From positions 41,048-105,047 of the forward strand of contig JAAYAM010000161.1 in the NCBI GenBank assembly GCA_012719355.1: a stretch of 64,000 bases of DNA, written 5' to 3'. The stretch comes from Acidobacteriota bacterium. GTDB taxonomy: Bacteria; Acidobacteriota; UBA6911. Below, piece by piece: positions 6,868 through 28,367 of the stretch. The translations under genes were made by a program, and so were the position numbers. Position 1 is the stretch's first letter; each line of letters opens with the position of its first letter. The notes under the pieces were generated by a model, which worked only from the letters and a program-made list of their open reading frames with translations, was not told the DNA's origin and made no database searches.

Positions 6868-7329
6868 GTGGCTCGGGATGCATTTGAAATCGGTTGCGTA
6901 GGAAATGTCTTTTCTGATAACTCTCTCGGTATGACTGATAGTTTGGGATCTGCTGAAAAGAACAGAAAGTCGCTGACTCTCCGGGCCTGCAACATAGGCG
7001 TACGGACGGCGCACATCATTGCAACCTGCATACTTGTCGGCGGGCACTATTTCGCTGTTGCGCCTGACCTTCTGCTTCCGTGGCTTTACGCCACCGTCGC
7101 TTCCGGTGCAATCCTGATACTGATCGAGGCTTATCCTGGCTGGCGATGGCATCGAGAGGCGCGTGGCTGCATGGTTCTGACCAAGATCGGCGTAATGTGT
7201 CTGGTCATCTGGCTATGGGAATATCGTGTGATCTGGCTGCTGACCGTAATCGTCATCGGCTCGATCGGTTCTCACATGCCCCGGCAATACAGATATTTTC
7301 AGGTAATACCCTGGCGCAGGATCGATTGA
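6868..7329 (+). CDS. hypothetical membrane protein
   Basis: ORF with about 4 predicted TM helices; no homology recognised; start uncertain (internal MTDSLGS possible). Confidence 0.35.
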   Translation: MARDAFEIGCVGNVFSDNSLGMTDSLGSAEKNRKSLTLRACNIGVRTAHIIATCILVGGHYFAVAPDLLLPWLYATVASGAILILIEAYPGWRWHREARGCMVLTKIGVMCLVIWLWEYRVIWLLTVIVIGSIGSHMPRQYRYFQVIPWRRID

Positions 7330-7352
7330 CCTCATCGGAACCGGCGGATGTA

Positions 7353-7778
7353 TCAGTGGTCTTCGGCGACGGCGGTCAGAACCAGTTTTCCATGTTTCAC
7401 GCCCTTGGTCGCGATCAACCCGTCGGCAACCTTTCTGATCTCTTTTGAACTGCCCCGCAACAGCAGCACCTCCAGGCAGAGATGAGGGGTCAGGTGGATA
7501 TGGATTGTAGAAATGATTGCATTCAGATGGTGGTGCTGATATTCGGTAAGCTTCTCCTCCAATTCGCGCTGATGATGATTGTAGACGAGTGTCAGCGTGC
7601 CGACTCCCTCGGCGTCTTCCCGCTTCAGGGTGTCTTCCATCAGAAGACTCCGAACCATATCGCGGATCGCCTCTGAACGGTTCTCATACCCCTTGCCGGC
7701 GCACAAAGAATCAAATTCAGAAAGCAGGCTTTCTTCCATCGAGACGCCAAAACGGACCAACCGATTACTCCTGGTCAT
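7353..7778 (-). CDS. nikR: nickel-responsive transcriptional regulator NikR
   Basis: N-terminal ribbon-helix-helix (EESLLSEFDSLCAGKGYENRSEAIRDMVRSLL) plus C-terminal Ni-binding domain with the HHH...H..C motif (EYQHHHLNAIISTIHIHLTPHLCLEV); ATG with GGGAGGGG RBS. Confidence 0.85.
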   Translation of the reverse strand: MTRSNRLVRFGVSMEESLLSEFDSLCAGKGYENRSEAIRDMVRSLLMEDTLKREDAEGVGTLTLVYNHHQRELEEKLTEYQHHHLNAIISTIHIHLTPHLCLEVLLLRGSSKEIRKVADGLIATKGVKHGKLVLTAVAEDH

Positions 7779-10420: not shown

Positions 10421-12805
10421 TCATGGCTCCTGCAACTCCTTGATACGGCTTTCGAGTACCTCTCGTTCGGAAACGGGAAGCCGCCCGCTGCTCAGAATGC
10501 CTTGATACAACGCCCGGGCCTCATCGGTCTTTCCTTGTTTGAGATAGGTCTCACCGAGCAGGAGTATCGCATCAAGATGGAAGCTCTTCTCTCGCGCCAG
10601 CCGCTGTAATATAGCTATCGACTCAGCACTGTCACCGCTCTGAAGAAGGTAGAACGCCAGCGAGTAGCGGTACTGCGAATTGTCCGGCTGAATTGTGCAG
10701 GCACGTCGCAGGTATTCGATCGCTGAAGCCATCTTACCCGACTGTGCATTCACCACACCCAGATTGTAGGCCGCTACGGCGGATCCCGGGTCAAGCTCTG
10801 CGGCTTTCTGCAAATGCGCGGCGGCTTCTTTCAAATTACCCATTTCTCCAAGCAGCAACCCGAGATTCAGGTTCGCCTCAACACTGTCAGGCTGTAATTC
10901 ACTCGCTCTGCGCAGGCTGTGAACGGCTTTGTCGTTCATGCCGAGTCCGTTGTAGGCGAACGAGATATTGACATGAGGCTGAAGCGCCCGCGGTTGCAGC
11001 CGTATAGCGGTCTCATAAAACGATACGGCCTGCCGGTAGTCACCCTGCGAGAGATAGAAGCTTCCCAAGTTGTAATAGGAGGACCAGTGGTCCGGACGAG
11101 CCTGGAGGAGCGACTTGAATTCCTCTGCCGCCTTGTCAAAGGCCCCGGCAATGCCGGCTTCCAGCACGTTCCGTGGAACTGACGCCATTGCGGAAGCGGC
11201 GCGCACCCGCACAACCCGCAATGGGTCGCTGAGCGCAGCACTCAGCACAATCAGGGCGGCACCGTCAATGCGGTCTCCCAGGGCTTCAGCGGCACTGGCG
11301 CGAACCAGGGGCGAAGGATCTTTCATTGCGCGTATCAGGACAGGCCATTTCCGGTCGTCATTGCAGGGCCGGAGCAAGCGTATCAGCGATGCGCTGAAAA
11401 CCGCGTCACGCCCTTCACTCTCCACGTACTCGAGCATGGCCGGCAGCTTCTTCCAGTCACGTCTTCGTGCAGCATCGATGAGAGAGGCGCGAAGAAGAAC
11501 CGGCGCCTGGTAGTCCCTCTTCCGCCATTTGCGGACCCACCCATCCGACCACCTGGCGTCCCTGTCGGTATGACAGATGTTGCAGGCATTCGGCGACTTG
11601 TAGGCTGCGGTTACCGCAGGAGTCGGCGGCAGCATCGAATGATCGCTGCGGCGCATCCGGGCGAATTCGGTCATCGGCATATGGCAGGAAATACACTGGC
11701 TCCCAGGACTCCCTTCGGGATGGTGCGAATGAGCTGAGGCATTTCCCACTTTGTCGTTATGACACGGAAGGCAGGCGTCGTTCTTCCGGGCGTCAGCAAA
11801 TCGAAACCTTCCGCTTGACGTGTGGCAATGCATGCAATCCATCTGTCCCGATTTCGCACAGGGACTCATCAACCACTGTGTGTATGTGTAGTTTTCACCA
11901 AGGTCGCGACCGTCGGGGTGATAATCCGGCAGATCAAGAACACCCAGATCGAAATGGTCAAAGAAATCATCTCCGGGTTTGTAGGAAGCAGTCAGAGGAG
12001 TTGCCTTGGCATGACATGTAGCGCAGGCGTCGCCCCCAATTTTCGTGCTGTACTTGGGCGGGCCGATTATGTCAATCTTCAAATCTTCGGGAGTGTTCCC
12101 CTTCCCGGCCTTGCGGCAGACACGGACGTGTTCAGTCGCAGATCCATGACAGGTTTCGCAGTTGATGCCCGGTTCAAGCCAGACGGAACTGTAGGTATCT
12201 GTTGCCTGATCGTAGTTTCTCGTGAACTGGCTGACGTGGCACCCGTAACATGATGTGTTGAACGTATACTCCGGATCTTTCCACCCTACCGGCTCTTCCT
12301 CTATGTCCTGAAAATGCCGGATTCCGCTGGCCGCCGTATCAAACCAGGATTTCTTCCGGACATCATACGCCAGGGGAAGAACCTGCAGACGCCCGCGATC
12401 CATTGACGTGAGGAAATAATAGACGTTCTTTCCTCCGAGGGCGTGCGCCAGAGGATATTCTTTCTTTCCTCGAGGGCCGCTCTCGCTGATCCAGGCGCGT
12501 GTGCCATCGAATTCCACCCGGCACGTGGAATCTCCAACAACCAGATCTTCGGTCTGCGGCGTAAGCCTGGTGCGAAACAATTCAGCCGTGAAGGGCTGCA
12601 TTGCCAGCCCATGATACGAAGTGGCCCAAAGCTGGTAAAACTCTTCGTGGCATTCGCGGCAGGACTGCGTCCCTGAATAGCCGTCAGAGGCGGCCGAATC
12701 ACCAGCCGTACCCCGAATCACCGACTGCAAGCTTTGATAGAAGATCGCCGCCGCGCAAAGCAGGACGACCGCCAAAAGTATGATGATCCATCTTGTCTTC
12801 TTCAT
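10421..12805 (-). CDS. membrane-anchored octaheme cytochrome c fused to HEAT and TPR repeats
   Basis: N-terminal TM helix; eight CxxCH motifs (CRECH, CYGCH, CETCH, CATCH, CMHCH, CLPCH, CISCH, CNICH); C-terminal HEAT-like (PLVRASAAEALG) and multiple TPR repeats; ATG with GAGG RBS. Confidence 0.85.
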   Translation of the reverse strand: MKKTRWIIILLAVVLLCAAAIFYQSLQSVIRGTAGDSAASDGYSGTQSCRECHEEFYQLWATSYHGLAMQPFTAELFRTRLTPQTEDLVVGDSTCRVEFDGTRAWISESGPRGKKEYPLAHALGGKNVYYFLTSMDRGRLQVLPLAYDVRKKSWFDTAASGIRHFQDIEEEPVGWKDPEYTFNTSCYGCHVSQFTRNYDQATDTYSSVWLEPGINCETCHGSATEHVRVCRKAGKGNTPEDLKIDIIGPPKYSTKIGGDACATCHAKATPLTASYKPGDDFFDHFDLGVLDLPDYHPDGRDLGENYTYTQWLMSPCAKSGQMDCMHCHTSSGRFRFADARKNDACLPCHNDKVGNASAHSHHPEGSPGSQCISCHMPMTEFARMRRSDHSMLPPTPAVTAAYKSPNACNICHTDRDARWSDGWVRKWRKRDYQAPVLLRASLIDAARRRDWKKLPAMLEYVESEGRDAVFSASLIRLLRPCNDDRKWPVLIRAMKDPSPLVRASAAEALGDRIDGAALIVLSAALSDPLRVVRVRAASAMASVPRNVLEAGIAGAFDKAAEEFKSLLQARPDHWSSYYNLGSFYLSQGDYRQAVSFYETAIRLQPRALQPHVNISFAYNGLGMNDKAVHSLRRASELQPDSVEANLNLGLLLGEMGNLKEAAAHLQKAAELDPGSAVAAYNLGVVNAQSGKMASAIEYLRRACTIQPDNSQYRYSLAFYLLQSGDSAESIAILQRLAREKSFHLDAILLLGETYLKQGKTDEARALYQGILSSGRLPVSEREVLESRIKELQEP

Positions 12806-12925
12806 TTCAGCCTCGTTCAAAGCATGCAGTTCGTTTTCCAGCCGGAGGTGAATATAACCGATTTAGCTTGCGGACCAAAGAAGTAAGTGTCATAAAAGGA
12901 AGACACCAATGAAAAGGAGGAGTGA

Positions 12926-18387: not shown

Positions 18388-18592
18388 AGTCTCGCCCGGA
18401 CGCCATGCGGCCTGCCAGGCAGCAGTCGATTTCATTGCATAACAGGATTTTAGCTACAGTCGCCCACGCTCTGGTTTATCGTAACAACGGCACGGAAGCT
18501 TTAGTCAATTCCACCGCTAACGCCCTGTAGTGAAGAAGGTTATCAGATTTTCCAGTCGTGTATGTTATTTTAGTCACGGCTACCGCGCTTCA

Positions 18593-18611
18593 TACCCCCT
18601 GCAAGGGGGTA
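18593..18611 (+). promoter_or_regulatory. GC-rich hairpin TACCCCCT-gca-AGGGGGTA in the 5' region of the radical SAM gene
   Basis: 8-bp perfect stem with 3-nt loop, about 40 nt upstream of the ATG at 18651. Confidence 0.3.
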
Positions 18612-18650
18612 CGAAGTGGAACGCAATCGTATTACGCATGGAGAAGAGCA

Positions 18651-19523
18651 ATGAAGTACGAAGGGATGATCTACCGCCCGCCAAGCGAAGCAGACAGCCT
18701 TATACTGCAGGTGGCAGTAGGGTGTTCATACAACGGCTGCACCTTCTGTCATTCCTTCCAGGGCAAGACCTTTCGCATCAAGTCTTTTGAGGAAATTAAA
18801 GAGGATATCGATGAGGCAGCCACGTACGGAACCATCCGGCGGGTTTTCTTGGCTGACGGAGATGCGCTGATCATTCCCCAGACTGAACTGGTCCGGATCC
18901 TCGCCTATTTGAAGGAAAAAATCAGAGGACTCGAGCGCGTCGGTATTTATGCCAACGCCGTTGACGTTCTTAAGAAGAGCACCGAAGAGCTTTTCGAACT
19001 CAGGCGACTCGGCTTGGGCATCATTTATCTAGGCCTCGAATCCGGGAACGCAGAGGTTCTCAAGCGGATCAGGAAGAACGCTACAGTGGACCAGATGATA
19101 CGGGCGGGGAAGCGGGTGAAAGAGGCCGGGATACTGCTCTCGATCACGGTGTTGCTCGGCGTCGGCGGCGTGGAGCTGAGCCATGCGCATGCCGAAGATA
19201 CAGGCAGAGTACTTTCCGGAATGGATCCGGAGTTCGTCGGTGCCCTGTCGCTCATGATCGTCCCGGGAACCCCGATACACGAAGAAATGCAGTCGGGAAA
19301 GCTCGTACTTCCGACGCCGTTCGAACTGATCCGCGAGCTGGGAACCATGATTGCGAACTGCCGCTTTACCAACTGCTTCTTCGCGTCAAACCACGCATCG
19401 AATTATTTGCCACTGCGGATCAGGATGCCTGCGGAGAAAGAGCAGGCGCTACAGCTGATTCACCAGGTTCTGCAGCGAAAAGACCCTGAATTGCTTCGCC
19501 CCGAGTATATGCGGGCACTGTAG
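18651..19523 (+). CDS. radical SAM domain protein (non-canonical Cx4Cx2C cluster motif)
   Basis: VGCSYNGCTFC motif near the N-terminus, glycine-rich SAM-binding segments (GIIYLGLESGN), GGAGAAGAG RBS; no SPASM domain. Confidence 0.8.
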   Translation: MKYEGMIYRPPSEADSLILQVAVGCSYNGCTFCHSFQGKTFRIKSFEEIKEDIDEAATYGTIRRVFLADGDALIIPQTELVRILAYLKEKIRGLERVGIYANAVDVLKKSTEELFELRRLGLGIIYLGLESGNAEVLKRIRKNATVDQMIRAGKRVKEAGILLSITVLLGVGGVELSHAHAEDTGRVLSGMDPEFVGALSLMIVPGTPIHEEMQSGKLVLPTPFELIRELGTMIANCRFTNCFFASNHASNYLPLRIRMPAEKEQALQLIHQVLQRKDPELLRPEYMRAL

Positions 19524-19702
19524 GACAGCCGGACGGCGATGGTAGTCTGTAGCCGTTTTCAGAATGGCTCCAGATGCAGGCAAACAACAATTTAGCTCCT
19601 CCCTCCGACTTCAATTCACCATTCGGTAAGGCTGCCCTCGATGGTATACTCCTGAAGGAACCGCGGTTCCGTTTCCGGCATAAGGAAGGTAGAGACAGTC
19701 TC

Positions 19703-20119
19703 ATGAACAATGTTTCTGCAAAAGCGAAATTCGTTCTGGGCGGCGTCGTTATCGTGGCGGCGCTTGGATGGCTGGGGTTCGTCGGCTTCGAGGAAAGCAA
19801 AGCATACTATATCACGGTCGATGAGTACGCCGCGTTGACGGAGCCGAGGGAAGGGCGGGTCTTCAAGCTTGCCGGCGACGTGGTTGCCGGCTCGATCGAC
19901 AGATCCAAACCTCAGATGGAATTCATAATTGCCAGCAACAACAAAGAAATCCTGGTGCGCTATGTCGGGAAGGACATAATCCCCGATACATTCAGGGACG
20001 GATCGACAGCGCTTGTGGAAGGAAGCGCCGCACCGGATGGAACCTTTCATGCTCGCCATATCGAAGCAAAGTGCGCCTCGAAATACGAAGCGGAATACGA
20101 CAAGAGAACCACTTCCTAA
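19703..20119 (+). CDS. ccmE: cytochrome c-type biogenesis heme chaperone CcmE, CxxxY variant
   Basis: N-terminal TM anchor and OB-fold CcmE signature (LVEGSAAPDGTFHARHIEAKCASKYE); Cys replaces the canonical heme-binding His of the HxxxY motif. Confidence 0.85.
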   Translation: MNNVSAKAKFVLGGVVIVAALGWLGFVGFEESKAYYITVDEYAALTEPREGRVFKLAGDVVAGSIDRSKPQMEFIIASNNKEILVRYVGKDIIPDTFRDGSTALVEGSAAPDGTFHARHIEAKCASKYEAEYDKRTTS

Positions 20120-20179: not shown

Positions 20180-22207
20180 ATGGCCAGTTTCGGCAACTTT
20201 TGTATTCTTTTTGCCTTATGCCTTTCGGGATATGCCCTTCTCGCCGCTTTGATCGGAGTCTCGCAGCGCCGGCAGACGATTGTGCGCAGTGCGGAACACG
20301 CCGTCTATGCCGCGACGGGAGCGATTACACTCGCTTTGTTCTCACTCCTGTACCTTCTGCTTACGGATGATTTTTCGGTATCCCATGTAGCGAATTCCAG
20401 CAGTCGGGAACTCCCGGTGTTTTTCAAGATCGCCGCAATCTGGGGAGCTCATGACGGATCGATGCTCCTTTGGGTCTTCTTCACCTCCCTCTTCTGCGCG
20501 CTGGTAGTCTGGCTGAACAGATTCCGGCACAGGGATATGATGCCTTACGTCATTGCGGTCCTGATGATCGACCTCGGTTTCTTCCTCTGCCTCAACGTCT
20601 TTATCTCAAATCCGTTCACGCAGCTGGCACAAGTATTTCCGGACGGCAGCTATCAGTCCTTCCTTCCCACCGACGGACGCGGGCTCAATCCGCTGCTGCA
20701 GCACTGGGCCATGGTGATTCACCCTCCCGTGCTCTACCTCGGATTCATCGGCTTCCTTGTCCCATTCGCTTTCGCTATCGCGGCCCTCATCACCAGGCAG
20801 CTTGGCGACACCTGGATCAGGACTACACGGCGGTGGACTCTTTTGACTTGGCTTTTCCTCGGCATCGGACTGATTCTGGGAGGCAAATGGGCGTATGTCG
20901 TGCTCGGCTGGGGCGGCTATTGGGCCTGGGACCCGGTGGAGAATTCGTCCCTTATGCCCTGGCTCGTCAGTACCGCGTTTCTCCACTCCGTGATTGTCCA
21001 GGAGAGAAGAGGAATGCTGAAGATCTGGAATATGCTCCTGGTCATCATCACCTATCTTCTCGGGATCTTCGGCACCTTCATCACGCGCAGCGGAATCGTC
21101 AGCTCCGTCCACGCGTTCGCCGCTTCAAATCTTGGACAGTTCTTCATTATCTATATGTCCGCGGTTCTCGGCGTGAGCCTCATCCTCGTCGCCAGTCGCC
21201 TCCAGTATCTGAAAAGCGAGCGCCGGCTCGATTCCATTCTCTCCAGGGAAAGCGCATTTCTATTCAACAACCTGATTTTGGTGGTCGCATGTTTTGCCAT
21301 CCTCTGGGGAACCATGTTTCCGGTTCTTTCGGAATGGATCAGGGATACCCAGATCACGGTCGGGCCTCCATTCTTCAACAACATCAATGTGCCGATCGGC
21401 CTGCTGCTCCTTCTTCTGACCGGGGTGGGGCCGTTGTTTGCGTGGCGCAAGACTTCCCTGGAGAGCCTGAGAAAGGCATTCCTGCTGCCGTCGATTTTCG
21501 CCGTTGCAACGTGTGCGGCGGTTCTCGCGGCGGGCGTGCGCAACTTCAGCTTCGTTGTTTGTATGACCCTGTGTACCTTCGTGCTGGTGACAATTGTTGA
21601 AGAGTTCTACAAGGGAACCAGAATCCGGATGTCTTCACGAGGAGAGAATCCTCTCCTTGCAGCCGTCAATCTGACGCTCAAAAACAGGAGACGCTACGGC
21701 GGCTATATTGTCCACCTGTCGATAATCTTCATGTTCGTGGGATTCGCCGGGAATGTATTCAATCAGGAAGCTTCCGGGCGGCTGGCAAAGGGCGCCGAGT
21801 TGACCATCAAGGATTATTCCTTAAAGATGGTCGATTACCGCGAAGGCGCCGGATCCAACTACCAGTATCGCCGGGCAGTTCTGGACGTGTATAAAGACGG
21901 CAAGCGCATCCGAACGCTCGAGCCGGAACAGAGGATGTTTACAGCGGGACAGCAGCAGACTACCACGGAGGTCGCGCTTCACAGCACACCGAAAGAAGAC
22001 CTTTATCTCGTCCTTGCGGGCGTCTCGCGAGATGGTTCAGTCGACATAAAGGCGTTCGTGAATCCGCTGGTATTCTGGATCTGGTTCGGCGCGGCAGTAA
22101 TGTTCTTTGGGGCTCTGATAGCTCTCATCCCTGAGAAGGGGAGGATCGGAAGCACGCAGCCAGAACTCGCCGGTCGGCAGACGGCAGGCGTCAATCCGGG
22201 AGTATAG
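20180..22207 (+). CDS. ccmF: cytochrome c-type biogenesis protein CcmF (heme lyase)
   Basis: 675-aa polytopic protein with WWD domain (GGYWAWDPVENSS) and conserved His residues. Confidence 0.9.
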   Translation: MASFGNFCILFALCLSGYALLAALIGVSQRRQTIVRSAEHAVYAATGAITLALFSLLYLLLTDDFSVSHVANSSSRELPVFFKIAAIWGAHDGSMLLWVFFTSLFCALVVWLNRFRHRDMMPYVIAVLMIDLGFFLCLNVFISNPFTQLAQVFPDGSYQSFLPTDGRGLNPLLQHWAMVIHPPVLYLGFIGFLVPFAFAIAALITRQLGDTWIRTTRRWTLLTWLFLGIGLILGGKWAYVVLGWGGYWAWDPVENSSLMPWLVSTAFLHSVIVQERRGMLKIWNMLLVIITYLLGIFGTFITRSGIVSSVHAFAASNLGQFFIIYMSAVLGVSLILVASRLQYLKSERRLDSILSRESAFLFNNLILVVACFAILWGTMFPVLSEWIRDTQITVGPPFFNNINVPIGLLLLLLTGVGPLFAWRKTSLESLRKAFLLPSIFAVATCAAVLAAGVRNFSFVVCMTLCTFVLVTIVEEFYKGTRIRMSSRGENPLLAAVNLTLKNRRRYGGYIVHLSIIFMFVGFAGNVFNQEASGRLAKGAELTIKDYSLKMVDYREGAGSNYQYRRAVLDVYKDGKRIRTLEPEQRMFTAGQQQTTTEVALHSTPKEDLYLVLAGVSRDGSVDIKAFVNPLVFWIWFGAAVMFFGALIALIPEKGRIGSTQPELAGRQTAGVNPGV

Positions 22208-22209
22208 CT

Positions 22210-22653
22210 ATGGCGGTTTGGGTGGCATGCACAGTTGTCGTGCTGGTAAGCGGCATATACGTTCTCAGGCCGCTCTTCAGGCAGAGCGCAGGGAATTTTG
22301 ATGTCGACCTTCTGTCTGAAACGGAGCTTGACCGGCTGCTCGACCGGAAATCGGTCGTCTACCGGAATCTCAAGGACCTGCAGCTGGAATTCAGGATGGG
22401 CCGGCTCTCCGAGGACGATTTCCGGCAGCTCGATGAGGGCTATAAGAACGAAGCCGCCTTGATATTGCAGAGGCTTGACCAGCTCGACGCTTCGGAACAC
22501 CTCGATGAAATGATCGAGAAGGATATCAGGGCGAAGAAAGCGAAACTGTTCGGTACAGCCACCCGGACTGCTGATTCATCACGTTGCCCGTCGTGCGGCG
22601 CACCGAGAATCGAGGGCAAGAAATTCTGCGGCGATTGCGGCCAGCGTCTGTAG
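22210..22653 (+). CDS. hypothetical membrane-anchored protein with C-terminal zinc ribbon (zinc_ribbon_2-like)
   Basis: N-terminal TM helix, coiled-coil, C-terminal CPSCGAPRIEGKKFCGDCG; starts 2 nt after the ccmF stop. Confidence 0.6.
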   Translation: MAVWVACTVVVLVSGIYVLRPLFRQSAGNFDVDLLSETELDRLLDRKSVVYRNLKDLQLEFRMGRLSEDDFRQLDEGYKNEAALILQRLDQLDASEHLDEMIEKDIRAKKAKLFGTATRTADSSRCPSCGAPRIEGKKFCGDCGQRL

Positions 22654-22658
22654 ACAAA

Positions 22659-23849
22659 ATGAGAAAATTATCGATTCCAGCATTGTTGTTTTTCCTGGCT
22701 ATTGTGCCGGCAGCCCGCGCACAACAGCAGTGGATCGCCGAAGGAAAACTGATCAACGGAACTGATCCGTCAATCATCGCGCGCGGTGTCGAAGTGGAGA
22801 TACTCAGCCTTGATGTCGGGATGAGCATTATCAAGGCAGGTTCCACGGATTCATCAGGGAAATTCCGCTTTGAAGGGCTCCCGCCAAACCGGAGGATGAT
22901 GGTTCGTGCAAACTACAAGGATGCCAACTATCACGCGCAGCTTTCATTCACCGCAGGAAAGGCCAACACGGATGTCACGGTGTACGAACCCACGACGTCG
23001 ATGGCAGGGATTGAGGTTCAGGAGGCATTTCTGGCTTTCCAGCAGTCAGGCGAAGATTTGAAGTTGCTTGAGACGGTCACCTTCAACAACAAGACGAACC
23101 CTCCAATGACCTTTGTCGCTCCCGAAGGTACTTTCAGGACTTCCAAATCTCCAGGGCTGCTCGAACCTCCTCAGATGAGGGTCACGGCCCCCGGCTCATC
23201 GATGCCGGTGGTCCAGTCCGTGCTCGAGAGCGCGGACGGCACGAACTATTACACTCTTTATCCTCTCCGGCCCGGGGAGACCACGTTCGAAGTCCAGCAG
23301 CTGCTTCCGTATAAGGATCGAAGCTACAGGCTGATCAAGAAGTTCTACCAGAATGTCGGCTCGCTGAATATCGGGGTGATACCGCAGGACATGGTGTTGT
23401 CCGGGGAAGGACTATCGAAGATCCAGTCGGACGGCGAGAAGAACTTCTCCATTTACCGCACCCCTTCGATCAAGGCGGGAACCGAAATAGCGTGGGAGTT
23501 TTCCGGGGGAACACCTGTGCCGGACGCCGCAGAAGAGCCCACGGGAGGATCGGAAATACAGGCAATCCCAAATGACGTGGGAGAGAGTGCAATTATGATA
23601 GGCTCACTCCTCCTGATGGGTTTTGTCCTGGTTCTCTGGTACGCGTTTAACCGCTCGCCGGAGGCGGCGGTCGGTCAGGCGGACGCGCGCACCCGCACGC
23701 TGAAGGAACAGAGGGAGCAGCTGCTGAAGTCGCTTGCCGAGCTGGACCATCGCAAGGACACCGAGTCGATTGGGCAGGATGAATATCTGAAGCAGCGGGA
23801 AGAAGGCAAGCGCCGGCTGCGGCGCATTTCACTTCTCCTGAAAGAATGA
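22659..23849 (+). CDS. hypothetical secreted protein with carboxypeptidase-regulatory-like beta-sandwich domain, C-terminal TM and coiled-coil
   Basis: Signal peptide, SGKFRFEGLPPNRRMMV motif typical of CarboxypepD_reg/Cna-B folds, one TM near the C-terminus, K/R/E-rich tail, no Cys; stop overlaps the ccmA start (ATGA). Confidence 0.6.
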   Translation: MRKLSIPALLFFLAIVPAARAQQQWIAEGKLINGTDPSIIARGVEVEILSLDVGMSIIKAGSTDSSGKFRFEGLPPNRRMMVRANYKDANYHAQLSFTAGKANTDVTVYEPTTSMAGIEVQEAFLAFQQSGEDLKLLETVTFNNKTNPPMTFVAPEGTFRTSKSPGLLEPPQMRVTAPGSSMPVVQSVLESADGTNYYTLYPLRPGETTFEVQQLLPYKDRSYRLIKKFYQNVGSLNIGVIPQDMVLSGEGLSKIQSDGEKNFSIYRTPSIKAGTEIAWEFSGGTPVPDAAEEPTGGSEIQAIPNDVGESAIMIGSLLLMGFVLVLWYAFNRSPEAAVGQADARTRTLKEQREQLLKSLAELDHRKDTESIGQDEYLKQREEGKRRLRRISLLLKE

Positions 23850-24598
23850 TTCGGCGACCTATGATTGAAGTTCGGAAACTGGCCAAACATTTCGGCAGGT
23901 TCCCGGTTCTGCGCAGCCTGGATCTGACGATTCGAAAAGGAGAGTTTGTCGCGCTCTTCGGAAGAAACGGGGCGGGGAAGACCACCTTTTTGCGAATTCT
24001 GGCCGGGCTTTCCCGCGCGTCCTCGGGAACCATGAGCATACAGCTCCCGGATGAGAAGAGATTCCGCTTTGCGCGAGGTGCGATCGGATATCTCTCACAC
24101 AACACGTCGCTGTATACGGATTTGACTGCGCTGGAGAATCTCGGTTTCTATTCCAGACTTATGGATGCACCTTCGGATGAAGCGTCGCTGATCCGGAAGA
24201 TCGAGCTGGTCGGACTGGCCGGACGTGAAAGAGAGCCGGTACGCAATTACTCGCGAGGAATGCAGCAGCGCCTCGCAATCGCAAGGGCCTTCCTGCACGA
24301 TCCGGAGATTCTGCTTCTGGACGAGCCTTTCACCGGACTGGACCAGGGGGGCTCCGAATTCCTCAAATGGTTTCTCGCGCAGGCGCACTCGGAAGGGAAG
24401 ACCTGCATCGTCGCGATCCACGATGCGTCTCTCGGCTATGAGATGGCAGACCGGCTTGTCGTTATCGAGAGAGGAGTGGTGGCTCTCGATGTGCCGAAAA
24501 CATCCCTGACTCTGAAGGAATTCGAGGAGAGGTACCTTGCCGTCACTCAGACGCGCATGCGGAGCAGCGTCGGTCCTAACGCAGGAAATCTCCTATGA
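23846..24598 (+). CDS. ccmA: heme exporter ATP-binding protein CcmA
   Basis: ABC ATPase with Walker A (GRNGAGKTT), signature and Walker B; operon position. Confidence 0.85.
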   Translation: MIRRPMIEVRKLAKHFGRFPVLRSLDLTIRKGEFVALFGRNGAGKTTFLRILAGLSRASSGTMSIQLPDEKRFRFARGAIGYLSHNTSLYTDLTALENLGFYSRLMDAPSDEASLIRKIELVGLAGREREPVRNYSRGMQQRLAIARAFLHDPEILLLDEPFTGLDQGGSEFLKWFLAQAHSEGKTCIVAIHDASLGYEMADRLVVIERGVVALDVPKTSLTLKEFEERYLAVTQTRMRSSVGPNAGNLL

Positions 24599-25263
24599 AG
24601 AGGATATGGGCCGTATTCCGGAAGGATCTGCTCGTTGAGTTGCGGACGAAGGACACGCTGAATTCGATGCTCTTTTTTGGAGTCGTCGTTCTCGTGGTCT
24701 TCAATTTCGCCATGGAATCCCTGCGCGATTCCGTTCGCACCGCAGTTCCCGGAGTTCTGTGGGTCGCGTTTGCGTTTTCCGGGACACTCGGCCTTAACCG
24801 GATGTTCGCCTCGGAAAAGGAGAATGGCTGCCTGCAGGGCCTGTTGATGATTCCTGTGGACCGCGGCATCATCTACTTTGGAAAGATGCTGGCGGCGACG
24901 GTATTCATGCTCATCGCCGAAGTGATCATATTCGTCTGCAGCCTTGTGTTCTTCAACCTGACGGTCTGGAATGAAATCCCTTATCTGGCCTTAGTTTTCC
25001 TGATCGGCACCCTGGGGTTCACTGCCGTGGGGACGCTGCTGTCCGCCATCGCGGTAAATACGAGGTTGAGGGAGGTTCTGCTGCCGCTTCTCCTTTTCCC
25101 GGTAATTCTGCCTGTCCTCGTCAACGCGGTGGAGGCTACCGGGATCATACTGAACGGCCCGGACTACGGAGCATTGAGACTGCCGCTCACGGTAATGACG
25201 GTTTTTACGGTGGTCTTCGGCACGGTTTCGTATCTCCTGTTTGAGCACGTCCTGGAGGATTAG
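24595..25263 (+). CDS. ccmB: heme exporter protein CcmB
   Basis: 6-TM CcmB-like protein, ATGA overlap with ccmA. Confidence 0.85.
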   Translation: MKRIWAVFRKDLLVELRTKDTLNSMLFFGVVVLVVFNFAMESLRDSVRTAVPGVLWVAFAFSGTLGLNRMFASEKENGCLQGLLMIPVDRGIIYFGKMLAATVFMLIAEVIIFVCSLVFFNLTVWNEIPYLALVFLIGTLGFTAVGTLLSAIAVNTRLREVLLPLLLFPVILPVLVNAVEATGIILNGPDYGALRLPLTVMTVFTVVFGTVSYLLFEHVLED

Positions 25264-25265
25264 GA

Positions 25266-25955
25266 ATGACGCACAAATACAGATCCCGCCTCGATACGGC
25301 ACTTGAGATCATCCTGGTCCCCGGAATGGGGCTCGCCCTGTACATGGCTTTTATCGTGGCTCCCCGGGAAGCTTCGATGGGAGACCTGCAGCGCATCTTC
25401 TACTTCCACGTGGCGGCGGCGATCGCGGGAATGACCGCGTTTGCGGTGAATTTCGCCGCTTCCCTGATGTATGTGATCCGGAAGAACCGCTGGTGGGATC
25501 ACGCCGCACTGGCGGCCGCTGAAGCCGGGGTTGTGTTCATGGTCATGGTGCTGATCACGGGGCCGATCTGGGCAAAACCGGCATGGTTCATCTGGTGGAC
25601 CTGGTCGCCGCGCCTGACTTCCTCTCTCGTACTGTGTCTGCTCTATGTCGCCTATCTCCTTATCAGGAACTATATCGGAGATCCGGACCGAAAAGCGCTG
25701 GTCTCCGCGGTATTCGGCATCATCGCTTTCGTGGATGCTCCTCTGGTATGGTTTTCGATACGGTGGTGGCGCGACCATCATCCAGGCCCGATGCTCGAGA
25801 CCGGAGGACTGGACCCGTCGATGCGTCCGGCGCTGTACATATGTATGGCGGTATTCCAGGTTCTCATGTTCTATCTGCTTCGGCGGCGTTTCCGTCTCGA
25901 GGGAATGCGCGACCAGGTGGAGTCGCTCTACCGCCAGGCAGACCTGGCGTCCTGA
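25266..25955 (+). CDS. ccmC: heme exporter protein CcmC
   Basis: WWD domain (WFIWWTWSPRLTSSL) and conserved His residues. Confidence 0.9.
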   Translation: MTHKYRSRLDTALEIILVPGMGLALYMAFIVAPREASMGDLQRIFYFHVAAAIAGMTAFAVNFAASLMYVIRKNRWWDHAALAAAEAGVVFMVMVLITGPIWAKPAWFIWWTWSPRLTSSLVLCLLYVAYLLIRNYIGDPDRKALVSAVFGIIAFVDAPLVWFSIRWWRDHHPGPMLETGGLDPSMRPALYICMAVFQVLMFYLLRRRFRLEGMRDQVESLYRQADLAS

Positions 25956-25958
25956 AAG

Positions 25959-26144
25959 GTGAGAATCATGAATCCTATAAATTATCTCTTCTCAGCATAT
26001 CTGGCCATCTGGATTATTCTGGCGGTCTATCTCCTGTCGATTCGGATGCGAGAGAAGAAGCTGCAGCAAGAAGTAGAGCAGCTGAGAGGGCTGATCGAAA
26101 GAGCGGATATCCACGAAGGACAGGAAGGAAAGCCTATCCGGTAG
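25959..26144 (+). CDS. ccmD: CcmD-like small heme exporter protein
   Basis: 61-aa single-TM protein immediately after ccmC. Confidence 0.55.
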   Translation: MRIMNPINYLFSAYLAIWIILAVYLLSIRMREKKLQQEVEQLRGLIERADIHEGQEGKPIR

Positions 26145-26180: not shown

Positions 26181-28367
26181 TCAATTGGAGGAGGCGAGTC
26201 GTTCCAGGACGGAACGTGCTTCCTGGCTGAGGAATTCCCATAGCCCGAGCTGCTTCAGGGTCTGGGGCAGAGGGATGCCCGAACGGCCCCAGCCGCGCTG
26301 CTGATAGTACACGTCGATAAGTCTGCGCAACTCCTGCCGGCGCAGTTGCATCAACTTTTCGCGTTTTTCCGTGGTGCTCATTCCGTTGAAATTTTCAGCA
26401 GACATTCCGAGGCGCTCTGCCAGGTCCCTGTCGTTGAATTCACGCTCCGATTCATAGAGGGCATCGTCTGTCGGGCCGATGGCACGATCGGGTATCCAGT
26501 CGTGCTTCCCTGTCTCAGAGCCGTACTTAAGCACGTTCATCACGCGCTGCAGGTTGATGTCCCGATCTGTCTGGGCGAAGATCTCTTCCCAGGTCAGGTC
26601 CTTTCCAAGAACACCGTTGTAGTACTCTGCATAGATTTCCTGAGACGCAGGATTTATATAGATGTCGGTGCCGGTGCGGGTCTCTGAGTCGGGATTGAAT
26701 ACGTCGACCCAGGGAAGCTTGCAGACTCCCATATTGTCGTTTCCCAGCCGGACGCGCGGATAGTTGATAAGCGCCCACGCCTTGTCCTCAAACGTGGGAA
26801 ATGCGCCGAGAAGATCCGCCTTGATCAGCCAGGCGGCTGCATGGTGCGCGCCGATGTCACTGGCGGCCGCGTACGACGCCTGCATGGAAACTGACTTGTG
26901 AGTCCGGTAGAAGGTGAACGGCAGTCCTTTCGCCTGCATGGCAAATTTTTCGAGTTCCGGGCGTATGTCTTCTCCCGTCCTGGCGTTGTATCTGGCCCAG
27001 ACCCAGTCGACGAGCTCCCTTATCCCTTTGCCGGCGGCTATGGCCATCCCGGTCGAACCGTGGGCCATACGGTGGATGAATTCCAGCGCCGAGGTTTCAT
27101 CGCCCCAGGAAAGCACCAGATCCTCTCCGTCTTCTTTGTCCAGGTAGCCGCGCTGAGTGCATTCCATCAGGAAGGCCATTACGCCTGCGGTTGTAATCGT
27201 GTCGATGCCGTAGTTATCGCAGTGCCAGTTGGCCTCCATTATAAATTCGGGATTCCACATTCCCAGATTGGAACCGAAACCGGCAGCGGTTTCATACTCG
27301 GGGCCATCCACCCAGACTGTTTTCCCCCTGTGACCGCCGCTCGTGAGGGTAACCCAGCCTCCTTTCGTGCACTGGAGATTGCACCCGGCAAAGCAGCCGT
27401 CCATGCCGCGGTGATCAAACAGATGCTCCGCATAATACTTGCCGCAGATCTGCGGCGCGCGTGGGTCAGAGCCGGCTTGAAAATTGCGCACCGGCAGCGA
27501 CTGATACTCGGCCTTGCTCATGAACGTGATCAGGCCGGCGCTCCCTTTTCGGTGCATCTGCAGTGAATTCGGATCGACTTCCCTGACGACTTTGTGCAGT
27601 TTGGCACCCGCCCGCTTCACCCTCTCCCAGTCGGCTGCGCCGTAAGGGTTCTCGCCACGGGGATTCTCGGCCAGCACCACGATTGCCCGGATCCCTTTGC
27701 GGCTCATGACAGAGCCCAGCCCGGTCCGGCCGGCCTGTTTTACCCGGAACAGCCCCCTGCGCCCGTCAACAGGCTTGGTTACGTCAAAATAGTGACTGTT
27801 GATGCAGCCGTAATTCGTATTGGCGGCCCCGATGCCGGTCGACATGAAAGCGATGTGGCGCTTTTCATATCCGGCTGCAGTGAAGCGCTCGGCGATCTCG
27901 CGCTCCAGATCGAAGGCTTCTTCGTGTGAAGGAGCGTCCTCGACGGTTACTTCGCACGTGTACCCGTTTACGACAATGAGGACCGGGCGATCGGCCTTGC
28001 CCGTCACCTGCAGCGCATCGAATCCGGCATATTTCAGATATGCGCCGAAGTATCCCCCGAAGTTTGAGACTCCCGCAATACCGGTGATTGGAGAAAGCGA
28101 AACAGCCATAGCCTTTGCAGTACCGGGAAACTGCGGAATTCCGCCCAGCGGGCCGTTCGCCAGAATCAGCGGATTCTCGGGATCGTCGGGCTTGGTCGCG
28201 GAGCTCGTCGCCTTATGGAGCAGGTAAAGTCCCAAACTGCGGCCGCCCAGGAAGTAATCCCGTACCTTAGGGTCGAGCCCGGGGACGGTAATCTCCCCGG
28301 TTGTGAGATCCACACACAGGAGCCGGTTCGTGTAGCCCCGCTGTATGCCGCCCTTCGGGTATTTCAT
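26181..28367 (-). CDS. aldehyde:ferredoxin oxidoreductase family protein (tungsten/molybdopterin, YdhV-like long form)
   Basis: AFOR N-terminal and catalytic domains (MKYPKGGIQRGYTNRLLCVDLTTGEITV..); 728 aa with C-terminal extension. Confidence 0.85.
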   Translation of the reverse strand: MKYPKGGIQRGYTNRLLCVDLTTGEITVPGLDPKVRDYFLGGRSLGLYLLHKATSSATKPDDPENPLILANGPLGGIPQFPGTAKAMAVSLSPITGIAGVSNFGGYFGAYLKYAGFDALQVTGKADRPVLIVVNGYTCEVTVEDAPSHEEAFDLEREIAERFTAAGYEKRHIAFMSTGIGAANTNYGCINSHYFDVTKPVDGRRGLFRVKQAGRTGLGSVMSRKGIRAIVVLAENPRGENPYGAADWERVKRAGAKLHKVVREVDPNSLQMHRKGSAGLITFMSKAEYQSLPVRNFQAGSDPRAPQICGKYYAEHLFDHRGMDGCFAGCNLQCTKGGWVTLTSGGHRGKTVWVDGPEYETAAGFGSNLGMWNPEFIMEANWHCDNYGIDTITTAGVMAFLMECTQRGYLDKEDGEDLVLSWGDETSALEFIHRMAHGSTGMAIAAGKGIRELVDWVWARYNARTGEDIRPELEKFAMQAKGLPFTFYRTHKSVSMQASYAAASDIGAHHAAAWLIKADLLGAFPTFEDKAWALINYPRVRLGNDNMGVCKLPWVDVFNPDSETRTGTDIYINPASQEIYAEYYNGVLGKDLTWEEIFAQTDRDINLQRVMNVLKYGSETGKHDWIPDRAIGPTDDALYESEREFNDRDLAERLGMSAENFNGMSTTEKREKLMQLRRQELRRLIDVYYQQRGWGRSGIPLPQTLKQLGLWEFLSQEARSVLERLASSN

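Follow-up and report, generated by a model that had tools for sequence, protein, structure and literature searches.

orf397 and orf147, an unannotated pair of membrane proteins conserved in System I* cytochrome c maturation operons and a candidate counterpart of CcmI

The window analysed here is a 64,000-nucleotide stretch of DNA from an Acidobacteriota bacterium (lineage UBA6911; contig JAAYAM010000161.1, positions 41,048 to 105,047). It carries a cytochrome c maturation (ccm) operon in which two genes without annotation, orf147 and orf397, lie between ccmF and ccmA. A sequence-only reading of the window had described orf397 as a periplasmic beta-sandwich protein with a C-terminal transmembrane (TM) helix and a cytoplasmic coiled coil, possibly acting together with orf147. 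The features of orf397 are the following:

22659..23849, + strand: orf397, an intact open reading frame (ORF) of 396 codons for a bitopic membrane protein of 396 amino acids, belonging to an unannotated ccm-operon family.
22659..22721, + strand: Sec signal peptide, residues 1-21, ending in ARA before QQQ (sequence, helix 5-19 of the AlphaFold2 (AF2) model, conservation in the alignment).
22728..22988, + strand: periplasmic domain 1, residues ~24-110, a probable CarboxypepD_reg/transthyretin-like beta-sandwich with a conserved NGT motif.
23001..23522, + strand: periplasmic domain 2, residues ~115-288, a larger beta domain without a sequence family (AF2 strands 118-283, predicted local distance difference test (pLDDT) ~90).
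23583..23654, + strand: single TM helix, residues 309-332, N-out/C-in (AF2 helix; NR and other positive residues after it).
23676..23846, + strand: cytoplasmic helix-turn-helix, residues 340-396 (AF2 helices 340-367 and 373-395).

The translation begins with a typical Sec signal peptide, MRK followed by a hydrophobic segment and the ARA-QQQ junction. The JGI gene call is 387 amino acids long and starts nine codons downstream, by which the n-region of the signal peptide is lost; the ATG at 22659 is preferred because it fits the homologues better. This ATG lies 5 nt past the stop codon of orf147 and, as had been noticed from the letters of the window, the TGA overlaps the ATG of ccmA ("...gaATGAtt..."). 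The AF2 model, built on 20 homologues with a mean pLDDT of 82.7, exhibits strands only over residues 25-283, then a disordered linker (289-308), the TM helix (309-332) and two terminal helices (340-367, 373-395). Translation and model together confirm the ORF, the signal peptide, the beta-structured periplasmic part, the single TM helix and the charged tail of the sequence-only reading. Its estimate of about 320 periplasmic residues is to be shortened to about 290, and its cytoplasmic coiled coil is not a long generic one: the 64-residue tail (15 K/R and 13 D/E) is predicted to form a helical hairpin whose motif, REQLLxxLAxLDxxxxxxxIxxxEYxxQRxxxKxxL, resembles the N-terminal part of CcmI.

A transthyretin-like sandwich is the probable fold of domain 1, which spans about 85 of the 396 residues. 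Structure comparison revealed that the fold of domain 2 resembles those of the M1 aminopeptidase N-terminal beta domain, ITIH1 and ribophorin I; this domain harbors the most conserved motifs of the family in the alignment (NNKTxPP, LESxDGxSYYxLYPLxPG and FSGGT). The best whole-chain Foldseek matches are to ribophorin I/OST1, with E-values of 5e-8 to 7e-6 and TM-scores of 0.2-0.3. No family scored above cut-off in a Pfam/NCBIfam scan of orf397, and searches of PDB sequences with orf397 and with three family profiles returned nothing meaningful, the hits at E>0.003 being to FtsB, to a transthyretin-like protein and to zinc ribbons of ribosomal proteins. Thus no clear assignment to an unrelated family, which the earlier reading had named as one outcome that would speak against it, was found in the Pfam, NCBIfam or PDB searches. 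Signatures of thioredoxin, CcmH, TPR and Ig_CycH are absent from orf397 and 48 relatives (TPR and Ig_CycH at E<=0.1).

Across the broad family, N144, P205 and G283 (orf397 numbering) are invariant, and G29, N33, T35, G54, Y91, P183, G206, Y218 and L362 nearly so. Cys, His and Met are conserved nowhere in the same alignment, and structure comparison matched neither a NEAT-like nor a HasA-like fold, which argues against a classical haem site in orf397. The protein itself contains no cysteine; beyond residue 30, Cys is absent from 272 of 343 relatives, and CxxC occurs in a single one of the 343. CcmH and CcmG are marked by a periplasmic CXXC motif, LRCxxC in CcmH and within a thioredoxin fold in CcmG. 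The claim that orf397 is not a thiol-redox substitute for CcmG or CcmH therefore holds for a Cys-poor family as a whole: such a role is ruled out because there is neither a conserved Cys nor a conserved CxxC. A true CcmH is encoded as a separate ORF in 12 of 32 loci. The lack of conserved Cys, His and Met makes a binding scaffold a better fit than a redox or a haem site.

The surrounding operon reads ccmE-ccmF-orf147-orf397-ccmA-ccmB-ccmC-ccmD, with gaps of at most 5 nt or overlaps between genes from ccmF through ccmD:

18558-19523, + strand: radical-SAM gene, just upstream of ccmE.
19703..20119, + strand: ccmE, Cys-type, with the motif AKCASKYEAEY in its translation (Pfam CcmE; JGI call of 138 aa).
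20180..22207, + strand: ccmF, haem lyase (Cytochrom_C_asm and CcmF_C; TIGR00353, 470 bits).
22210..22653, + strand: orf147, partner of orf397 (sub-threshold Pfam zinc-ribbon matches; TIGR03142 family matches).
23846..24598, + strand: ccmA, its start overlapping the orf397 stop (TIGR01189, 140.7 bits for a cut-off of 131.6).
24595..25263, + strand: ccmB (PF03379, E 2.4e-36).
25266..25955, + strand: ccmC (TIGR01191, E 1e-37).
25959..26144, + strand: ccmD, of the alternative CcmD family (TIGR04391, 41.1 bits for a cut-off of 24).

The longest ORF of ccmE starts at 19574, the JGI call at 19703. Neither CcmH nor CcmG is encoded in the operon, CcmH being undetectable across the whole 64-kb window, and the operon holds no canonical CcmI gene, combining a membrane anchor and a TPR domain. 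System I* is a variant Ccm pathway with a Cys-type CcmE, often without CcmH and CcmG (Allen 2006, Goddard 2010, reviewed in PMC3601427); its marker is CxxxY in CcmE in place of HxxxY (PMC3601427, PMC9084895), and a System I* with an auxiliary CcmI has been described (PMC3601427). The operon of the window is of System I* type, without CcmH, as its CcmE exhibits CxxxY instead of HxxxY.

A search of 5.8 billion proteins yielded 337 close homologues of orf397 with 50-62% identity, all of them nameless or "hypothetical", those of named source being from Acidobacteriota. By profile, 1.84 billion cluster representatives gave 2291 relatives at E<=1e-3, of which 733 reach E<=1e-10; many of the relatives are full-length proteins of ~400 aa with the same layout at only 20-25% identity. 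More than 3800 family sequences belong to a second acidobacterial clade, Ca. Acidoferrales, where no name goes beyond "carboxypeptidase-like regulatory domain-containing protein". The broad profile also recovers generic repeat proteins, such as P0230.

The loci were surveyed with one genome per GTDB species, the neighbours being called by tblastn with the proteins of the window. The order CcmE-CcmF-(CcmH)-orf147-orf397-CcmA-CcmB-CcmC-CcmD is found, as far as the contigs reach, in 32 of 32 loci, all from metagenome-assembled genomes of Acidobacteriota. Twelve distant relatives were also looked up, two of them on contigs too short to judge; in all ten informative contexts ccm genes flank the relative, at 20-25% identity and including candidate division KSB1 and Planctomycetota. 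The association with ccm operons, on which the sequence-only reading had staked its proposal, is thus conserved in both sets. A homologue of orf147 ("small") stands immediately upstream of that of orf397 ("big") in every locus examined. The pairing with orf147 that had been suggested from the window is borne out by this adjacency and by a cytoplasmic motif that the two proteins share. The distant gene orders are:

L033 (candidate division KSB1) and L039: E-F-small-big-A-B-C.
L040 (Planctomycetota) and the P0144 contig: E-F-H-small-big-A-B-C.
L041: F-H-small-big-A-B-C-D.
L036: H-small-big-A-B-C-D.
L034: small-big-A.
L038, L042 and L043: F-H-small-big.

CcmE next to the family is of the CxxxY type in all 27 readable acidobacterial loci, as well as in L033, L039, L040 and L042. 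A true CcmH (PF03918, E 1e-18 to 1e-22) is encoded between CcmF and the orf147 homologue in the 12 acidobacterial loci mentioned above (L014, L016, L019, L020, L022-L024 and L027-L031, at ~6900-7480 in each and at 846-1253 in L023); CcmH also precedes the pair in L036, L038, L040, L041, L042, L043 and the P0144 contig. CcmH has been lost in the clade of the window, and its presence varies within a System I* lineage in which every CcmE is Cys-type. Three operons are split. The pair lies beside CcmF-CcmH in L038, where it is followed by a PNPOx gene, and in L043, where an unrelated gene comes next; in L042, F-H-small-big is separated by two unrelated ORFs from CcmE-CcmA-CcmB-CcmC. The pair was not seen beside CcmABC and away from CcmF/H in any examined context.

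Individual loci display further variations. A group II intron reverse transcriptase/maturase (RVT_1 and GIIM) is located between ccmF and the orf147 homologue at L015:5744-7123. The homologue at L040:7001-8986 reaches 661 residues, its periplasmic module (NGT/CarboxypepD_reg and second beta domain) being tandemly duplicated before a single TM helix and tail. At L031:7444-7911 the orf147 homologue diverges fully after about residue 70 and has no zinc ribbon, while the orf397 homologue of this locus seems split over two frames, probably by frameshifts (assembly errors or pseudogenes).

The orf147 family assembles a TM helix, the conserved stretch RKxVVYxNLKDLEFExxMGRLSxxDFxxLxxxYKxEAAxIL, a linker and a C4 zinc ribbon. 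In the AF2 model of orf147, the TM helix (2-24) is followed by a helix (30-62), a turn at a conserved Gly, a second helix (68-114) and the ribbon (123-147). The ribbon is missing from the partners in L034, L036, L038, L042 and L043, which are 88-129 aa long; TM helix and motif constitute the core of orf147, since these ribbon-less partners keep both. TIGR03142, the model of the CcmI N-terminal part with a curated cut-off of 29.3 bits, is matched, always below that cut-off, by 19 of 23 family members (best E 1.3e-5). The 120 matches listed in a homology search with the orf147 family are close, unnamed relatives of 147 aa, and none of them is a fusion with a TPR or an orf397-like domain. Automatic names given to its relatives are inconsistent ("Zn-ribbon and HTH transcriptional regulator", Nob1, L32, TiaS).

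The same CcmI model is weakly matched by orf397. Its last 100 residues, TM helix and tail, reach 17.4 bits (E 0.004, model positions 8-73), below cut-off, and TIGR03142 is the sole recurrent family among 20 orf397-family tails, eight of which match it. Profile-profile alignment (hhalign) of the orf397 tails with the orf147 family gave E 1.7e-4 and a probability of 50%. In a shuffle test, a hidden Markov model restricted to the cytoplasmic segment of the small proteins was run against 49 real tails and 1960 shuffled ones: the median was 6.8 bits for real tails, -0.5 for shuffles and -0.1 for reversed tails, with 73% of the real tails above the 99th percentile of the shuffles and 35% above every shuffle. 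Both AF2 models exhibit a TM helix and then a helix-turn-helix. orf147 and orf397 carry related modules made of a TM helix and a helical hairpin; composition alone is insufficient to explain the likeness, in view of the profile-profile and shuffle tests.

CcmI, or CycH, corresponds to the C-terminal part of E. coli CcmH and has NrfG as a paralogue. It is the apocytochrome c chaperone of the CcmFHI haem ligation complex, a job assigned to its TPR domain, while its N-terminal module consists of two TM helices with a leucine-zipper-like loop between them on the cytoplasmic side (PMC3884852). Like CcmI, the pair comes after ccmF or ccmH, is membrane-anchored with a large periplasmic domain and is devoid of catalytic or redox residues, and TIGR03142 is the top or only recurrent match of the TM helix and cytoplasmic motif in both orf147 and orf397. 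Conversely, the orf397 ectodomain is all-beta, with no TPR in it or in 48 relatives; the function would be split over two genes with one TM helix each, the ectodomain preceding the TM helix instead of following TM2; orf147 has a zinc ribbon; and all sequence matches stay below the family cut-off. orf397 should not be filed as a CcmI, as the defining TPR feature is missing, but it may work like one.

The operon compares with System I* in its CASKY-bearing CcmE, in the lack of CcmH and CcmG and in the presence of CcmABCD and CcmF; it differs from System I* as reviewed by two extra conserved genes that find no mention in PMC9084895, PMC3601427 or PMC3884852. Full-text literature searches, whose scope did not include the primary Desulfovibrio System I* paper, returned no description of the orf397 family in ccm operons. 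With ribophorin I/OST1 (PF04597), an accessory subunit of oligosaccharyltransferase, orf397 shares a signal peptide, a beta ectodomain, one TM helix and cytosolic helices, in contrast to a lack of sequence similarity, TM-scores of ~0.2-0.3 with very high root-mean-square deviations, and another domain of life and chemistry. This resemblance of the models would be an architectural analogy rather than a homology, perhaps a convergent or a generic one. The N-terminal periplasmic domain probably has the fold of CarboxypepD_reg (PF13620)/transthyretin-like proteins, whereas the remaining sequence and the ccm context are foreign to that family. As a putative accessory module of the Ccm pathway, the two genes orf147 and orf397 are new and widespread. 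The family is not covered by any entry of Pfam, NCBIfam or PDB.

Three lines of evidence suggest that this module belongs to the haem-lyase half of the pathway (CcmF/CcmH/CcmI) and not to the haem-delivery half (CcmABCD/CcmE): the F-H-small-big order, the split operons and the CcmI-like partner. The pair occupies the CcmI slot of ccmFGHI-type operons, after CcmF or CcmF-CcmH. Our proposal, which has in our judgement an even chance of being right, is that orf397 and orf147 would be a two-protein, non-TPR functional analogue of CcmI, serving the CcmF(H) haem lyase as its periplasmic subunit for apocytochrome docking. The two proteins would pair in the membrane, each through its one TM helix and through a cytoplasmic helix-turn-helix related to that of the other, and orf147 would supply a CcmI-N-terminal-like anchor that docks on CcmF or CcmFH. 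The ~290-aa beta-sandwich ectodomain of orf397 would take the role of the CcmI TPR domain, binding unfolded apocytochromes exported by Sec and keeping them near the WWD/haem site of CcmF for haem ligation. From gene order and motifs we infer that the two proteins form a complex, bind apocytochromes and are linked to CcmF. Among the roles put forward by the sequence-only reading, these same features favour apocytochrome/haem-lyase docking; its architecture, its non-redox character and its unit with orf147 stand, while apocytochrome presentation, haem handling and signalling keep the status of proposals.

A stronger version of this proposal is more tentative, being held at somewhat below even chance: the pair may be previously unrecognised, required subunits of the holocytochrome c synthase in System I*, with a minimal CcmI-type anchor and a ribophorin-I-like beta-sandwich chaperone jointly replacing CcmI and, in CcmH-less operons, also taking part of the CcmH/CcmG roles. 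This, if true, would account for the maturation of multihaem cytochromes in a System I* that has none of the canonical proteins for apocytochrome handling.

A number of observations weigh against a CcmI-like function. The topology of orf397 departs from that of CcmI, with the ectodomain N-terminal to the TM helix and one TM helix per protein. All TIGR03142 matches fall short of the 29.3-bit cut-off, and in the shuffle test the tail of orf397 itself stayed, with 4.3 bits, slightly short of the 99th percentile. FtsB, a generic TM and coiled-coil protein, is another match of the tail profile (E 0.003), and the tail motif resembles GvpG and SHOCT, so that it may be a generic oligomerisation hairpin. 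The resemblance to ribophorin I, with a TM-score of ~0.3, could reflect a common beta-sandwich topology. A TPR_CcmH_CycH-type domain does exist in the window, 10 kb upstream, fused to an octahaem cytochrome, and the absence of a canonical CcmI is a result for the operon. It is mainly orf147 and the gene position that tie the pair specifically to CcmI.

Three other explanations of the pair come, in falling order of likelihood, as an accessory of CcmABCD/CcmE, a transmembrane sensor or regulator, and a hitch-hiking envelope protein. The first, which we consider unlikely, is that the pair assists haem delivery by CcmABCD-CcmE, loading haem onto or releasing it from the Cys-type CcmE, for example by stabilising or discharging the Cys-haem adduct while the hairpins and the zinc ribbon contact the CcmA ATPase. 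Every CcmE beside the family is indeed CxxxY, the orf397 stop overlaps the ccmA start with CcmA directly next in most loci, and the near-invariant Y91 and Y218 could in principle ligate haem. However, in L038, L042 and L043 the pair keeps company with CcmF-CcmH away from CcmABC, the reverse never being seen, and a normal CcmD is already present in the operon. Moreover, the System I* of Desulfovibrio and of archaea run on Cys-CcmE with no such protein reported (PMC9084895, PMC3601427), and the missing His, Met and Cys ligands and NEAT- or HasA-like folds count here too.

The second explanation, distinctly improbable, is that orf397 senses the periplasmic apocytochrome or haem load, or the state of the envelope, and that it signals via the cytoplasmic hairpins to orf147, which tunes Ccm expression or activity. 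A bitopic protein with a cytoplasmic tail next to a partner with a cytoplasmic C4 zinc ribbon would suit such a function, and some sources label the partner a "Zn-ribbon and HTH transcriptional regulator". Yet these names are automatic and inconsistent, as Nob1, L32 and TiaS illustrate; the ribbon is evolutionarily dispensable, being absent from the five loci listed above, and the conserved core of the partner is a CcmI-like TM helix and hairpin. No DNA-binding, kinase or anti-sigma domain was detected in the Pfam/NCBIfam scans. The last explanation, an unrelated envelope protein (a CarboxypepD_reg-type surface protein or peptidase regulator) sharing the ccm transcription unit, is very improbable: CarboxypepD_reg domains are extremely common in Acidobacteriota, the relatives bear no other name than that of this domain and the profile also picks proteins such as P0230, but synteny holds in 42 of 42 informative contexts from three phyla, down to ~20-25% identity, ccmF and ccmA lie close to the pair or overlap it, and no peptidase or other partner gene recurs nearby.

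Other genes were noted around the operon. The radical-SAM protein encoded upstream of ccmE (18558-19523, + strand) is 77-88% identical across 11 loci, exceeding the conservation of any Ccm protein; its gene is found at this position in L001, L003, L005, L006, L008-L013 and L015, only in loci without CcmH. Its best partial matches are B12-type radical-SAM methyltransferases, the B12 domain not being detected. Directly downstream of ccmD and convergent with the operon (26181-28367, - strand) is the gene of a tungsten-type aldehyde:ferredoxin oxidoreductase (AFOR_N and AFOR_C), found at the same place with 59-81% identity in 11 related loci. The opposite strand encodes, some 7 kb before the operon (10421-12820, - strand), a 798-aa protein with eight CXXCH motifs (Cytochrome_C7, c3, c554 and MtrC-like matches) and a C-terminal HEAT/TPR region that passes the cut-off of Pfam TPR_CcmH_CycH, PF23914 (56.7 vs 42 bits); this fusion of an octahaem cytochrome with a CcmI-type TPR domain was not found flanking the related loci. 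A TPR protein downstream in L041 was rejected as a conserved neighbour, as it has no CXXCH and only a weak similarity to the fusion, limited to its TPR part.

Since 2006, System I* has been recognised as a pathway without CcmH and CcmG whose CcmE lacks the haem-binding His, and the supply of apocytochromes to its haem lyase has been an open point (PMC3601427, PMC9084895). The family described here is large and unannotated: it counts 733 representatives at E<=1e-10, and Acidobacteriota by themselves contribute thousands of sequences. Together with its obligate small partner, it lies within System I* operons from at least three phyla. Acidobacteriota are abundant soil bacteria rich in multihaem cytochromes. 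If orf397 and orf147 are the missing substrate-handling subunits, the annotation of cytochrome c biogenesis in this phylum would change. The compact eight-gene operon would then be directly testable in the established E. coli delta-ccm reconstitution assay, and the chaperone function of CcmI would prove to be buildable on a beta-sandwich instead of a TPR scaffold.

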